DNA of 49,614 nucleotides, from NCBI GenBank assembly GCA_016206675.1, contig JACQRD010000067.1:1-49614 (forward strand), read 5' to 3'. The DNA comes from Candidatus Omnitrophota bacterium (GTDB lineage Bacteria > Omnitrophota > Gorgyraeia > Aquiviventales > Aquiviventaceae). Below, one piece after another: positions 30,118-35,472 of the stretch (its first letter is position 1; each line of letters opens with the position of its first letter). The position numbers were made by a program, and so were the translations under genes. The notes beneath the pieces were generated by a model that was not told the DNA's origin, searched no databases, and saw only the letters and a list, made by a program, of their open reading frames with translations.

Positions 30118-32258
30118 GAGGGCTCCTGTTGTAAGACGGTAAGTTTCGAGAGGTCGGCAACCCGGTCAGTATACAACGCATGGATTGCGCGCATCAAGGC
30201 GAGCCGGTTGCGTTGCAGCGCCTCGTCGGGCACGTTGACCAGCACCTTGTCGAAGAACGTGTGCAGCGGCTCATAGAAGAGCTCTCCGAATTCTAGCGTG
30301 GCTTTGTCGTACAGGCGGTCGGTGATGAGCTTCGCGACCCGCTCCTTATGCTGATCGTACAACCGCCACAGTGCCTGCTCCGGCGGCTCCTTCAGCAGTT
30401 GCGGCTGCACCTGGCCGTCCGCACGCTTGGCCCCTTTGAGGATGTTGCGCGTGCGCTCGATGACCTTCGCGGCCTTCAGCAGCCCGGCCTGGCCGCTCAT
30501 CCGCTGGAGGGTGCGGATGCGGTCCATGGCATCGATCATATCTTCCCATGGACAGGCCAGCACAGCGTCAATACAGTCCGATGAAGGGGCCGGGGATGGC
30601 CAGTTGAAGGTGTAGAGTCTTTCTGCAAGGTAGCTGCGAACACGCTGTTGTACCTTCGCATCAGGTGGCTTTCCAGCAGCCGCCGACCATGCGTTGAACA
30701 GATTCTCAAACAACAGCGGTCGATGCGCAGCCCATGCCACTTCTATGATTCCTTGCGCGGCACGCCGAAGACCAAAAGGATCCTGATCTCCTGTCGGTTC
30801 GATGCCGATGCTAAAGTAACTCGCGAAGGTATCAAATTTGTCCAGGCTAGCTAGTGCAGAACCAATGAGGGTCTTGGGCATCTTACCAGCAAGTGGCAGG
30901 TAGTGCTCCTCGATTGCTTGACACACGGCGTCAGATTCACGATGGATTCTGGCGTAGTATTTCCCCATCACACCCTGCAAAGTCGGAAACTCCCTGACCA
31001 TAACGCTACCAAGGTCAGCCTTGGCAAGCTGGCTGGCCCGTTCAAGCTCTTTGGACTCTTGATTCGTCAGGTTCCACATCTTGCTAAGGTTTCTGCTCAT
31101 CTGGCAGAGGCGGTTGACCTTGTCCTGCACAGAGCCCAACTTTTCGTGGAAGGTGATTCCGGCAGCCTTGACGGCAAGCACGTTTAGTTGCTGTTTAGTG
31201 TCCTGCTCCCAGAACAACAAGCTATCCGCCAGGCGGGCGTTGAGGATACGCTCCACCACCGTGCGCACCTCCGACGGCTTGCCGGGCTTGCCGTCCAGGA
31301 TGGCGACGCAGCGCGGCAGCAGCTTCCCGTTGGCCTCAATGGCGAAAACGCGCTGGTGCTTGGCCATGCTGGCCAGCAGCACTTCGCGCGGCAGGACCAG
31401 ATAGCGCTTATCGAATTCGCCGACCAACGGCACCGGCTCTTCCGTCAAGAAGGTCACTTCCTCCAGCAGGCCGTGGCTGATCATCTCCGCCGCCGTGGTG
31501 CCGCGGAAGGCCTTGGCGGTTTTGGCCACCAGGCTGTCAATGACGGCGCGCCGCTGGCTTGGATCGAGGATCACCCCGACGCGCTTCAGCAGCTTGAAGT
31601 AGGATTCAATGGAGGAAACCGTCGCCCAGCGCAACTGCTGCGGCCGTCCCACGCGTGTCTTAGATTGGCCGGCGATCAAACCGAAGCGGCACGAAACCGC
31701 CTGCGCGCCATAGCGGGCCAGCAGCCAACGGATGGGCCGGGCGAAGCGCACGCCGCTGGCCTCCCAGCGCATACTCTTCGGCGCGCGCAGCTTTGTGATA
31801 AGCTGCGGCAGCAGGGCCGGCAGCAGCTTGACGGTCGGGGTGGTCGTGGGCGGCTTCATGAGGTAGACGTAGTCGCCCTTCGGCGTTGAGACGACTTTGG
31901 TGTGGCGGATGTCTCCGCCTTGCGACTTGAGGAAACCGAGCAGGGCCGGCGTGGGCTTGCCGGAGGCGTCGTAGGAGGCCTGCTTCGAGGGGCCGCGCAC
32001 CTCCTCGCCGGGCTGCTGTTGCACCGCGGAGAGCCCGCGCACGTGTAGCACCAACCGGCGCGGCGTGCCGTACGTCGCTGCCGAGTGGAACGCCAGGTGG
32101 TTGGCTTCACACAGCGTCTTGGCTTCCCGGTCGAGCTGTTCAATCAGCCCAGGCAGGTACGCCGCCGGCAGCTCCTCCGTCCCGATTTCAAAGAGAAGAT
32201 CAGCTGACCGCGAAGCTGGAGGTTGGAGGCTGGAGGCGGGAATGGATTTCTTTTTCAT
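30114..32258 (-). CDS. glyS: glycine--tRNA ligase beta subunit
   Basis: 714 aa. [12 protein letters not shown] near the N-terminus. The first ~20 codons ([18 protein letters not shown]) are read from a heptamer repeat arm. Confidence 0.9.
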
Positions 32259-32287
32259 CCAACTTCCAGCTGCTTGCTTCCAGCTTC
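32212..32287 (-). repeat. heptamer-array hairpin, GAAGCTG family, copy 1, spanning the glyQ stop / glyS start
   Basis: Plus strand: GAAGCTG GAGGTTG GAGGCTG GAGGCGG ... CCAACTT CCAGCTG CTTGCTT CCAGCTTC. Best hand register is 32212-32226 with 32259-32273 (15 nt, 2 mismatches). ATGA 32255-32258 lies at the loop edge. Confidence 0.8.
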
Positions 32288-33132: not shown

Positions 33133-33909
33133 CTAGACCCGAGACCCGTGACTCGCGACCCGAGTCTCGGGTCTCGAGTCTCGAGTCCACCCAGCTAATG
33201 TCTTTAGCGGTCTATCCAGGCGCCAACGCAGGAACTCATCCAGCCGGCGGCGCAATCCTGGCAGCGCGTGAGCATCCAGGGCGATGGGCTGATCGCTCTC
33301 CGAGAGCCGCTCCAAGGTTTCCAACGTGCTGTGCAGCACCGGTTCGGCCTTCGGATCCTCGTGCAGACAGTTGGCGCACAGCAATCCGCCCTGCTGCGCG
33401 CTCCAGTAGCCGGCGTGATGCACCATCGCGCCACACCCGGTGCACTCATCCACCTGCGGCTGAAAGCCGGCCAGCCGCAGAAACCGCACGATGAAATGGG
33501 TCCGGATCATCGCGGGGTCGGATCCGGCCACGGCCAGATGCTCCAGCGCCGACTTCAGCAGCCGGTAGACCGCCGGCTGCGGCTCATTCAGCGGGACGAC
33601 CGTATCCACCAGATCGACGCACAGCGCAGCGCTGCGGGCGACCTCCAGTTCCTGCTGCAGTGCCGCCAGCGGAGCCAGCAGCTCGCATTGGCTGATGAGA
33701 TGGAGCTGGCTGGTGTGCGTGTCGTAGAAGACGATGCGGTTGACCGTCATCGGCTCCATGGCGCTGCGATGGCGGTTCGGCAGCTGGCGCAACCCCTTGA
33801 TGAGCCCTTTCAGCTTGCCGTAGCGGTCCGTCAGGCAGCTGACTACGACGCTGGTTTCACGGTAGAAATACCGGCGCAGGACGATGGCATCTGCTGCATG
33901 AATGCCCAT
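33133..33909 (-). CDS. recO: DNA repair protein RecO
   Basis: ATG 33909 gives [27 protein letters not shown]. Cys cluster CTGCG...CANC. The C-terminal ~17 residues are encoded by a repeat. Confidence 0.85.
33135..33188 (-). repeat. heptamer-array hairpin, GACCCGA/GTCTCGA family, copy 1
   Basis: AGACCCGAGACCCGTGACTCGCGACCCGAGTCTCGGGTCTCGAGTCTCGAGTCC with a perfect central hairpin GACCCGA-gtc-TCGGGTC. About 95% identical to 33914-33967. Confidence 0.85.
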
Positions 33910-33911
33910 TG

Positions 33912-34427
33912 TTAGACCCGAGACCCGTGACTCGTGACCCGAGTCCCGAGTCTCGAGTCTCGAGTCCAACGCTTGGTATCTTCCGAACAGTTCGCCAATA
34001 GTCTATCTTCCAACTTTCGCATTTCTCGTTGCTGGGTGAGCGTGCGGTCGTCATGGCCGAGCCAGTGCAAAATGCCATGGACGACGTAGCGCGAGAGCTC
34101 CTGCGCGTACGACACGCCGTGGGCCTGGGCGTAGCGCTGCGCTTCCTTGGGTGCGACGAGCACCTCGCCGACAACCTGCCTGCGCCGTAGCGGCGCAGGC
34201 CAGCAGGTCGGCTCTCCCTCATACCGGAAACTGAGCACGTCGGTGGAGCGGTCGTGGCGCGTAAACCGGCGGTTGAGGCGGCGCATGCGCCCGGTGTCAA
34301 TGAAGGTGATGGCCAGCTCCCCGCCGCCACGGATCTTCAGCCGCCGCACCGCGGCGCGCGCCAGCTGTCGCATCCGGGCGGCGCTGACCGGGGCTTGCCG
34401 CTGGGCGTTGGTCACCCGCACCCGCAT
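33912..34427 (-). CDS. ybeY: rRNA maturation RNase YbeY
   Basis: HGILHWLGHDD zinc motif. The C-terminal tail TRDSRLGTRVTSHGSRV is encoded by a repeat. 1-nt TGATG overlap with phoH. Confidence 0.88.
   Translation of the reverse strand: MRVRVTNAQRQAPVSAARMRQLARAAVRRLKIRGGGELAITFIDTGRMRRLNRRFTRHDRSTDVLSFRYEGEPTCWPAPLRRRQVVGEVLVAPKEAQRYAQAHGVSYAQELSRYVVHGILHWLGHDDRTLTQQREMRKLEDRLLANCSEDTKRWTRDSRLGTRVTSHGSRV
33914..33967 (-). repeat. heptamer-array hairpin, GACCCGA/GTCTCGA family, copy 2
   Basis: AGACCCGAGACCCGTGACTCGTGACCCGAGTCCCGAGTCTCGAGTCTCGAGTCC, lying between the ybeY stop and the recO start. Confidence 0.85.
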
Positions 34428-35386
34428 CAGTGATGGTTGTGATTGATTTTGTCATAGGCGCTGATGATCGCCTGCACCAGCTCATGGCGTACCACGTCCT
34501 GCCCGCTGAAGAGCGCGAAGGCGATGCCGGGAATCTCCGCCAGGAGCGTCTGCACCTGGATCAGGCCGGAGGACTTCTCTGGCGGCAAGTCGATCTGCGT
34601 GACGTCGCCGGTCACCACGGCCTTCGAATCGAACCCGAGCCGGGTGAGGAACATTTTCATTTGCTCCGGGGTGGTGTTCTGTGCCTCATCCAGGACGATA
34701 AAGGAGTCGTTCAAGGTGCGGCCGCGCATGAAGGCCAGCGGGGCGACCTCGATGATGCCGCGGTCGAGATACCGCTGCACCATGTCCATCTCCATCATCT
34801 CGTAGAGCGCGTCATAGAGCGGGCGCAGGTACGGGTTGATCTTCTCGGCCATGTCGCCCGGCAGATAGCCGAGCCGCTCCCCCGCCTCCACCGCCGGCCT
34901 CGCGAGGATGATGCGGGAGACCTCTCCCTTCGTGAGGCTCTCCACCGCCATGGCCATTGCTAAGAAACTCTTCCCTGTACCAGCGGGCCCGATAGCGAAG
35001 ACAATGTCGTGCTTGCGCATGGCGTCCACGTAGGCCTTTTGCCCCGGCGTGCGCGGAATCACGAACCGCCGCTTGGAGGGCACCTCGATGCGCTCCTGGT
35101 ACATCTGGCGCAGCTGGACGAGCTTCGAGTCCTGCAGCGCTCGCAGCGCGTAGTCGACGTCTTCCCGGCGCAGCGGAGCACCCGAGCGCACAATGACCAG
35201 CAGATCGTCAAAGAGCCGCGCGGCCTTCGCGATGACCTCCGGCTGGCCGGCGATCTTCATCTCCTCGGCGCGCATGACGACCGAGACGCCGAGCACCTGC
35301 TCGATGCGCCGCAGATGCTGGTCGTGCTTGCCGAAGAGCGCTTGCGCTTCCTGCGCGCCGCGCAGCGTCACCGATTGCTCAGCCAT
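34427..35386 (-). CDS. phoH: PhoH-like ATPase
   Basis: 319 aa. Walker A GPAGTGKSFLAMAMAV, VLDEAQNTT, conserved PhoH C-terminus. Confidence 0.9.
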   Translation of the reverse strand: MAEQSVTLRGAQEAQALFGKHDQHLRRIEQVLGVSVVMRAEEMKIAGQPEVIAKAARLFDDLLVIVRSGAPLRREDVDYALRALQDSKLVQLRQMYQERIEVPSKRRFVIPRTPGQKAYVDAMRKHDIVFAIGPAGTGKSFLAMAMAVESLTKGEVSRIILARPAVEAGERLGYLPGDMAEKINPYLRPLYDALYEMMEMDMVQRYLDRGIIEVAPLAFMRGRTLNDSFIVLDEAQNTTPEQMKMFLTRLGFDSKAVVTGDVTQIDLPPEKSSGLIQVQTLLAEIPGIAFALFSGQDVVRHELVQAIISAYDKINHNHH

Positions 35387-35395
35387 CGCAATACG

Positions 35396-35472
35396 GAAGC
35401 TGGACGTTGGAAGCTAGAAGCTGGAACAAGCCATGCGTTCTTTCCAGCTTCCAGCCTCCTGCTTCCAGCTTC
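35396..35472 (-). repeat. heptamer-array hairpin, GAAGCTG family, copy 2
   Basis: GGAAGCT GGACGTT GGAAGCT AGAAGCT GGAAC ... TTCCAGC TTCCAGC CTCCTGC TTCCAGC TTC. Both ends are homologous to 32212-32287. Confidence 0.8.

Follow-up and report, generated by a model that had tools for sequence, protein, structure and literature searches.

Why do YbeY and RecO, two unrelated proteins encoded side by side in one operon, end in the same Arg/Ser/Thr-rich peptide? The question is raised by a 49,614-nt stretch of DNA (the window; contig JACQRD010000067.1 of assembly GCA_016206675.1, Candidatus Omnitrophota bacterium), in which recO lies between two near-identical hairpins made of tandem 7-nt units; plain coordinates below are those of the window. 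The assembly (G000) comprises 1.10 Mb in 97 contigs, has 65% GC and is 78% complete. We found that each hairpin supplies the last codons and the stop of the gene upstream of it, that both belong to a family dispersed in this genome and that the closest relative lacks both hairpins and both tails. With a probability of roughly 0.75, we read the pair (the twins) as translated selfish palindromes resembling the Rickettsia palindromic elements (RPEs), that is, as mobile sister copies seated at stop/start overlaps, with the shared tail as their by-product.

Twin hairpins on either side of recO

The genes and hairpins concerned, in the order of transcription, are:

34427-33912, minus strand: ybeY, endoribonuclease YbeY, 171 aa; Pfam YbeY at residues 18-145, with the tail outside the domain
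33970-33911, minus strand: hairpin copy 1 at the ybeY/recO junction, 60 nt; GTTGGAC, GACYCGN heptamers, GTCTAAC
33909-33133, minus strand: recO, 258 aa from the ATG at 33909; RecO_N at residues 1-80 and RecO_C at 93-238, with the tail (241-258) beyond both domains
33191-33132, minus strand: hairpin copy 2 at the recO/glyQ junction, 60 nt; GGTGGAC, the same kind of array, GTCTAGT
33127-32255, minus strand: glyQ, glycyl-tRNA synthetase alpha subunit (Pfam GlyRS alpha); its ATG lies 5 nt past the recO stop

In both copies, the core consists of four GACYCGN units followed by 3.4 GTCNCGR units, and the two 52-nt cores (33966-33915 and 33187-33136) are identical at 49 of 52 positions (94%). The similarity ends at GTTGGAC...GTCTAAC in one copy and GGTGGAC...GTCTAGT in the other, and the flanking DNA is unrelated. 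A degenerate 24-mer of the repeat has 5 matches in the window and none in 100 dinucleotide shuffles. Copy 1 encodes YbeY residues 154-171 (WTRDSRLGTRVTSHGSRV; the protein ends ...KRWTRDSRLGTRVTSHGSRV) and the stop TAA at 33914-33912, which is followed by a CA spacer and the recO ATG at 33909-33907. Copy 2 encodes RecO residues 241-258 and the stop TAG at 33135-33133, followed by a TGCCT spacer and the glyQ ATG at 33127-33125. Each tail has 4 Arg residues as compared to 1-2 acidic residues. The first-pass annotation, made from the sequence alone, had described two hairpins about 95% identical that flank recO, each providing about 17 codons and a stop and ending 2-5 nt before the next start; these figures hold up well, with 94% identity of the cores within 60-nt elements, 18 codons plus TAA or TAG, and distances of 2 nt to the recO ATG and 5 nt to the glyQ ATG.

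We propose that the twins represent one sub-family (unit GACYCGN, ends GTTGGAC...GTCCAAC) with about four tandem 7-nt units in each arm. One copy would have inserted at, or within a codon of, an ancestral TGATG between ybeY and recO and another between recO and glyQ, the second most likely being a product of the first, through local copying or a hop over a short distance. Because no sense frame of this heptamer contains a stop codon, a ribosome arriving from the upstream gene would read 18 extra codons through the element and stop at the TAA or TAG at its 3' foot, and since both copies have the same orientation and phase, YbeY and RecO would receive the same tail. The translating ribosome would melt the hairpin, terminate 2-5 nt from the next start and be able to re-initiate, such that coupling would survive although the spacer has no Shine-Dalgarno sequence. 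The arrangement presumably persists because the 60-nt insert is in frame and keeps termination beside the downstream start, so that translational coupling can survive; the tail itself is probably a tolerated, disordered by-product.

All three sense frames are open across both copies, except for the terminal TAA or TAG; of the two that do not encode the tail, one is in frame with the downstream ATG. As read from the sequence, an in-frame TTG at 33969 may turn hairpin 1 into an N-terminal extension of RecO, and an in-frame GTG at 33190 may do the same with hairpin 2 for GlyQ.

Tails and junctions in related genomes

We compared the locus with 21 related loci (L codes), all from Omnitrophota metagenome-assembled genomes (MAGs) or metagenome contigs, with RecO identities of 54-82%. 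In the closest relative, L008 (82% RecO identity), there is a plain TGATG at both junctions and neither protein has a tail, YbeY ending in ...LLARCRPLAGT and RecO in ...KTLATS. The junctions of L003, L004, L012, L013, L015 and L019 are likewise empty. In the YbeY alignment, conservation stops at ...LEDRLLxxC; orthologues with an empty site end 1-7 residues further on, and long tails are found only in genomes that have a junction hairpin. RecO orthologues without a hairpin end 2-4 residues past ...LKTL. Pfam coverage also stops short of the tails, at residue 145 of 171 in YbeY and residue 238 of 258 in RecO. The twins are recent, lineage-specific elements that are open in frame. The orthologue comparison proposed as a check in the first-pass annotation finds the tail absent from orthologues without a hairpin and both junctions empty in the closest relative, and with the domain ends it bears out the earlier view that unrelated proteins have acquired the same repeat-encoded tail.

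When AlphaFold2 was run on the YbeY alignment, the predicted local distance difference test (pLDDT) score was above 90 in the core and about 50 at residues 151-171, and the tails are predicted to be disordered. A different view would be that the basic Arg/Ser/Thr tail is kept as an exapted module that aids nucleic-acid binding, of YbeY to RNA and of RecO to DNA. Both proteins do bind nucleic acids, both tails have the excess of arginine over acidic residues given above, and peptides of this type recur in several proteins. However, RpiB-like, Lnt, HemB and GatA, which also carry the peptide, are unrelated enzymes, relatives have different tails or none, the pLDDT of the tail is low, and the peptide is a mechanical outcome of the DNA repeat in either orientation. 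We consider exaptation highly improbable.

It is scarcely credible that an assembly or sequencing artefact in the MAG created the repeats or hides an upstream stop. The locus is represented by a single MAG contig and neither protein has a second occurrence in the protein collection, which such an artefact would fit; yet the repeats, at 52-60 nt, are shorter than a read, the phoH-ybeY-recO-glyQ-glyS order and both reading frames are collinear with the relatives up to the hairpins, and about 100 instances of the architecture exist in this genome, with further ones at the same junctions in independent assemblies of relatives.

Period-7 arrays are present at the ybeY/recO junction in 5 of 17 distinct relatives (12 are without) and at the recO 3' junction in 4 of 16 (again 12 without). 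In the occupied relatives, the arrays at either junction belong to families other than GACYCGN, with the following units:

L001: GGGCTCC
L002: CTGTCTC and AGCACAC
L007: CTGTCTC
L011: GGAATGC
L014: CGTGTAC and GGATTTT
L018: GGTCCAT

Some of these hairpins are translated into tails of other sequence, as in YbeY of L001 (...RAPGSGLRVTAQSPQPRTHSPTRY, then the stop) and of L007 (...RDRRQGTGDKRTRKNPLSPVSRLLSQECD, then the stop), in L014, which is also tailed, and in RecO of L011 (...NYNRSSEFGVRNAELKARDSEFRIPHSELPV, then the stop). In L018 and L002, hairpins lie past the stop. Since unrelated hairpin families occupy the same junctions in relatives, repeated independent colonisation of the ybeY/recO and recO 3' junctions is the rule in this clade.

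Some relatives (L005, L010, L011 and L020) have, at the ybeY/recO junction, long insertions or hairpins that are GC-rich but not made of heptamers; the slot accepts other palindromes as well.

The GACYCGN family and the class of heptamer hairpins

In its own genome, the GACYCGN family has at least 13 loci with the common ends GTTGGAC/GTCCAAC. When we searched 41 genomes with the GACYCGN pattern, we found 39 matches in the own genome, one each in two others and none in the remaining 38. Apart from YbeY and RecO, the family is in frame within or at the termini of seven proteins, whose names rest on motif inspection, not on a profile search:

C39:4875-4926: tail of an rpiB-like gene, RTRDPRLATRVPSHESRVQLR and then the stop, with 5 nt between it and the next ATG
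C2:2248-2299 and C2:3159-3217: two internal in-frame segments of lnt
C66:4593-4671: inside hemB, just past the Cys-rich metal site
C94:7474-7501: partial array in gatA
C34:14227-14290: 5' end of priA, a possible N-terminal segment if an upstream start is used
C24:12348-12413: 5' end of def (peptide deformylase), a possible N-terminal segment on the same condition
C72:7360-7418: leader of a pseudopilin, likewise a possible N-terminal segment if an upstream start is used

A further partial array is found in HisH. A search of the proteome for the same peptide, which had been suggested on first inspection, accordingly returns the RpiB-like tail, Lnt twice and HemB, with partial arrays in GatA and HisH. 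The GACYCGN unit is nearly self-complementary and therefore yields a peptide of the TRD(S/P)R...SRV type in either orientation. In the RpiB-like copy, which keeps GTCCAAC, reading continues for three more codons (VQLR, then the stop). The twins share GTCTA at the 3' foot as compared to GTCCA in the other members, and this single change, GTCCA to GTCTA, is what creates the in-frame TAA or TAG. The distance from stop to ATG is 2-5 nt in all three assessable cases of a full tail.

A Trp codon in the tail could have been formed by an old TGA stop with the insert's first base. We consider this possible but did not adopt it, because TGGAC is also the end of the element away from stops (C2:2248, C85 and C72).

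Ten full-length members of the family have pairwise identities of 64-94%, with a short 31-nt copy lower. The twins are each other's nearest neighbours, at 94% as compared to 87-88% for the next-closest members. Among pairs of neighbouring hairpins of any family within 3 kb, 9 of 22 belong to the same family where 2.5 are expected (label permutation, P = 0.0005); other same-family neighbours are C39:3709/4874 and the two copies inside lnt. This local clustering of same-family copies accounts for the twin arrangement and suggests short-range spread as its simplest reading.

The twins are part of a much larger class, which the first-pass annotation had not recognised. In the own genome there are 417 period-7 arrays as compared to 53, 50 and 47 for periods 6, 8 and 9, and Tandem Repeats Finder (TRF) gives 475 period-7 rows as compared to 44 and 83. 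Pairing arrays with their reverse complements, we obtained 105 hairpins, and stricter fold-based catalogues gave 96-117 per 1.1 Mb. The architecture is about 4 × 7 nt, a loop and 4 × 7 nt (median arm 31 nt, median loop 6 nt), and the hairpins sort into 15 families by their common consensus unit. In an all-vs-all BLAST of the hairpins with 60-nt flanks, members of a family are 86-100% identical across both arms and the loop, the alignments of heptamer families stop at the hairpin borders, and loops are common to copies of one family; the few longer alignments are pairs of a longer composite CACCAAG/CCAAAT repeat. Shared loops and similarity that ends at the borders indicate discrete copied units, not arrays grown at each site. 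The twins themselves have TRF period-7 arrays on both arms, appear in both the paired-array and the fold catalogues and lie, as is typical of the class, at boundaries between co-directional genes, both on stop/start junctions.

These data also bear on the possibility that the hairpins formed where they now lie, through slippage of a heptamer during replication and subsequent fold-back or template switching, and that local gene conversion made the twins alike. Many bacteria have an excess of heptamer simple-sequence repeats, which has been attributed to slippage of the polymerase (PMC4692102), the arms of 61 of 89 hairpins differ by one base per unit as if each arm had been homogenised separately, and same-family copies cluster locally. 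However, copies on different contigs are 90-100% identical, with the same loops, exact borders and unrelated flanks, and the GACYCGN unit recurs with its GTTGGAC/GTCCAAC ends at the loci counted above. Two sites whose flanks are unrelated cannot have reached 94% identity over 52 nt by independent origin, and gene conversion requires a homologous target that already exists. Formation in place is quite improbable for these reasons, and we retain the reading of the twins as copies of a mobile element.

Among co-directional genes, 82 hairpins could be classified: 54 lie just past a stop, often in an ATGA, TGATG or TAATG context, 7 contain the stop, 4 (the twins included) are fully read through and 17 are inside long open reading frames (ORFs), such that 65 of the 82 are at gene junctions. 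Genes were called with a simple ORF and codon-usage caller that takes the longest ORF, and for this reason the start codons and the class of internal hairpins are approximate. Occupancy of junctions is about 12-29%, as 838 junctions compare with 96-117 hairpins by the strict definition or with 243 period-7 loci. Of 89 hairpins, 61 have arms that are alike but for exactly one position in the unit, so that each unit has 6 paired bases and 1 mismatch. Among relatives, the number of period-7 arrays per 80 kb is 10 in G001, 32 in G020, 10.5 in G018 and 16 in G027 (39% GC), and about 0-1 in G008, G014, G030 and G034; the heptamer-hairpin architecture is patchy but widespread in the class.

If the twins are selfish repeat DNA, they are a clean and datable case in which such DNA gives two unrelated essential proteins an identical new C-terminus at a stop/start overlap, where a compact operon is most constrained. 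Together with about 100 sister elements, they would mean that in some Omnitrophota a considerable part of the protein termini and surface loops comes from repeats. The annotation of starts, stops and tails in MAGs is affected, and trimming by homology can be misled. The locus is also a natural system in which to study tolerance of random peptide additions and coupling across a hairpin of –45 kcal/mol.

The rest of the operon contains the following features:

35395-35472, minus strand: heptamer hairpin of the GAAGCTG/TTCCAGC family directly upstream of phoH
35386-34427, minus strand: phoH, confirmed as PhoH by Pfam
32212-32287, minus strand: heptamer hairpin of the GCTGGAG/TCCAGCT family across the glyQ/glyS ATGA overlap
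32258-30114, minus strand: glyS, by ORF call

Of the five boundaries that the phoH-ybeY-recO-glyQ-glyS operon has, four are occupied by heptamer hairpins, which come from two different families. The only bare boundary is phoH/ybeY, where the ybeY ATG overlaps the phoH stop as TGATG (34425-34429), an unoccupied junction of the ancestral type. The twins are direct repeats 779 bp apart, and recombination between them would delete recO exactly, leaving ybeY with its tail next to glyQ.

RNA-level tests, known systems and means of spread

Folded as sense-strand RNA, copies 1 and 2 reach –43.8 and –45.7 kcal/mol (z = –5.2 and –7.3), and the antisense strands reach –37.4 and –35.6 kcal/mol, which is 6-10 kcal/mol weaker. 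The minimum-energy register of the twins is a stem of about 20 bp with one mismatch; the perfect central 7-bp stem with a 3-nt loop described in the first-pass annotation is not that register, whereas the outer U.G pair that it had pointed out on the sense strand is present near the foot of the hairpin (TGGAC/GTCTA), common to the twins and not general in the class.

These energies would suit hairpins that are selected RNA elements and mark cistron boundaries, for processing by an RNase (e.g. RNase III), for segmental stabilisation of the mRNA or for enforced coupling, with the tail as the price. The strand difference in the twins, the 2-5 nt between stop and next ATG in all three full-tail cases, the presence of unrelated hairpins at the same two junctions in about a quarter of relatives, the hairpins at four of five operon boundaries and the orientation bias of some families all fit this explanation. 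When we examined all 54 co-directional hairpins, however, the sense strand was the more stable one in 22 as compared to 32 for the antisense strand (P = 0.22), and G.U pairs were not richer on the sense strand (90 vs 88); we rejected selection at the RNA level on both counts. There is no excess of hairpins at convergent gene ends (3 of 59 hairpin junctions vs 57 of 838 genome-wide), and the junction types match the background. Neither hairpin has a terminator-like site of the Rho-independent kind; both are inside the operon, and the sequence that follows the stems (AACAAUG or GUGCCUAUG) has no U tract. A promoter scan gave no match at either hairpin, and a search of Rfam 15 gave only two chance matches to miRNA precursors there, at 22 bits as compared to gathering scores of 70-90. 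Moreover, L008 and most other relatives function with a bare TGATG, each passing ribosome melts a hairpin within a translated ORF, and the positions at which the twins differ, three in number, do not compensate for one another when the alignment is read against the predicted structures. We judge it unlikely that the hairpins are selected RNA elements. The first-pass annotation had left open whether the tail is neutral baggage or the repeat marks cistron boundaries; the lack of strand bias in these tests, the lack of a terminator, promoter or Rfam family and the pLDDT of about 50 favour baggage, and the boundary mark is left without support.

We also tried two forms of selection on reading frames. 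Avoidance of stop codons is not a property of the class: hairpins have 3.64 of 6 frames open as compared to 3.97 in random genomic windows of the same length, and 60% of consensus units are stop-free as compared to 75% of random genomic heptamers. Only some families, GACYCGN among them, are translatable. In-frame read-through into the downstream gene is open in 42 of 52 cases where 37 are expected (P = 0.04), and in 21 where 16.7 are expected if a start codon upstream is required as well (P = 0.10); we do not claim selection for it on such slight differences.

RPEs are palindromes that are translated in frame in unrelated genes (Ogata et al. 2000, via PMC10969869). The elements described here are similar to them in being short palindromic repeats of several families, placed in frame in unrelated housekeeping genes, translated and tolerated (PMC10969869); in-frame translated palindromes occur in the YbeY, RecO and RpiB-like tails, twice in Lnt and in HemB. 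They differ in family homology, length and host: RPEs are about 100-150 bp, have no tandem 7-nt units and are found in Rickettsia only, whereas the elements here are 50-100 nt, share the format 4 × 7, loop, 4 × 7 across about 15 unrelated units and are mostly at stop/start junctions, with few inside genes. The twins are analogues of RPEs and not members of that family.

Heptamer repeats are known from other bacteria. In Xanthomonas, GGGAATC heptamers occupy about 70 sites in inverted pairs, possibly forming stem-loops, and their function and spread are unexplained (PMC4692102, PMC4679880). Like the repeats of Xanthomonas, Nostoc, Calothrix and Beggiatoaceae, those described here are tandem 7-nt units that are mostly intergenic and near ORF ends (PMC4692102, PMC4679880). 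Those genomes, however, have one or few dominant units (GGGAATC, which is prone to form G-quadruplexes; TAACTGA), in arrays that are mostly direct and vary in copy number, in contrast to the many unit families, fixed hairpin format, shared loops, frequent translation and systematic mismatch per unit found here. Repetitive extragenic palindromes (REPs) and the REPINs formed with them are also abundant, short, imperfect palindromes at operon gene ends, hairpin-bounded, without coding capacity and locally clustered, but REPs are extragenic and associated with a Y1 transposase, the REP-associated tyrosine transposase (RAYT), whereas the elements here are often translated and no Y1 was found in the own genome. 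[quoted passage not shown] They consist of unique sequence between terminal inverted repeats, whereas the whole element here is a simple heptamer palindrome, and no parent insertion sequence or target-site duplication was found in the 78%-complete own genome. In a full-text literature search, we found no paper that links Omnitrophota with heptamer or palindromic repeats.

We looked for a consistent target-site duplication at the flanks of four family members and five near-identical pairs and found none, the genome being incomplete. Y1_Tnp (PF01797) occurs in 30 of 41 related genomes, at 1-5 per genome and mostly as ORFs of 200-260 aa. Of 16 Y1 genes inspected in relatives, over 2-6 kb, 12 lack any period-7 array and only one has an array adjoining its ORF. 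We reject the REP/RAYT model for now, since the own genome has no Y1, the Y1 genes of relatives are mostly not flanked by arrays and there is no link with hairpin density. The occurrence of one architecture across unrelated 7-mers, together with the lack of a known transposase, points to an as yet unidentified way of spreading.

Several results weigh against reading the twins as selfish mobile copies. The own genome, 78% complete, has no match to Y1/RAYT (PF01797), TnpB, DDE_Tnp_1 or rve, and there is no relation between Y1 presence and hairpin density across genomes, hairpins being as dense in Y1-negative relatives (G020 has 32 arrays per 80 kb) as in the own genome. Tailed YbeY and tailed RecO are singletons in a collection of 15 billion proteins. 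That about 25-30% of relatives have these junctions occupied might also be due to selection for hairpins at these sites, and the best relative, at 82% protein identity, is too distant to give the exact insertion point or a target-site duplication. In the class as a whole, mismatches on the sense strand are C.C in 31 cases and G.G in 7, and some families are biased in orientation relative to genes (GCTCAAG 9:0; GCTGGAA 12:1 at a looser match), such that some strand-specific constraint exists, be it on RNA, translation or replication. Since the great majority of genes run in the same direction as their neighbours (732 of 838 junctions are co-directional), the orientation bias could reflect replication direction, translation or RNA. 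The systematic one-mismatch arms and the strand and orientation biases argue against complete neutrality of the class.

More tentatively, and with less than even confidence, we suggest that heptamer hairpins might form a mobile class defined by structure and not by sequence (6 paired bases and 1 mismatch per unit, four units per arm), specific to parts of the Omnitrophota. Such elements would move by short-range hops with an enzyme other than RAYT, TnpB or DDE, settle by preference on stop/start overlaps and alter the ends of proteins as a matter of routine, with the result that unrelated products of one operon acquire a common tail.

Two further palindromes lie within reading frames. A GAAGCTG-family hairpin is in frame in the middle of a 1125-aa ORF (C69:17337-17407), with flanks ...YSTYEQPV and KKRRVMILGGGP..., which resemble the linker between the halves of the carbamoyl-phosphate synthase large subunit. 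In ybeY itself, there is a 46-nt non-heptamer palindrome (GCCGACCTGCTGGCCTGCGCCGCTACGGCGCAGGCAGGTTGTCGGC; 34167-34212, minus strand), and the 66-nt stretch that contains it (34150-34215) folds at –43.6 kcal/mol (z = –4.6). This palindrome coincides with an 11-residue in-frame insertion, TCWPAPLRRRQ, that is missing in most orthologues and has an AlphaFold2 pLDDT of about 50; different insertions are found at this loop of YbeY in L001 and L009.

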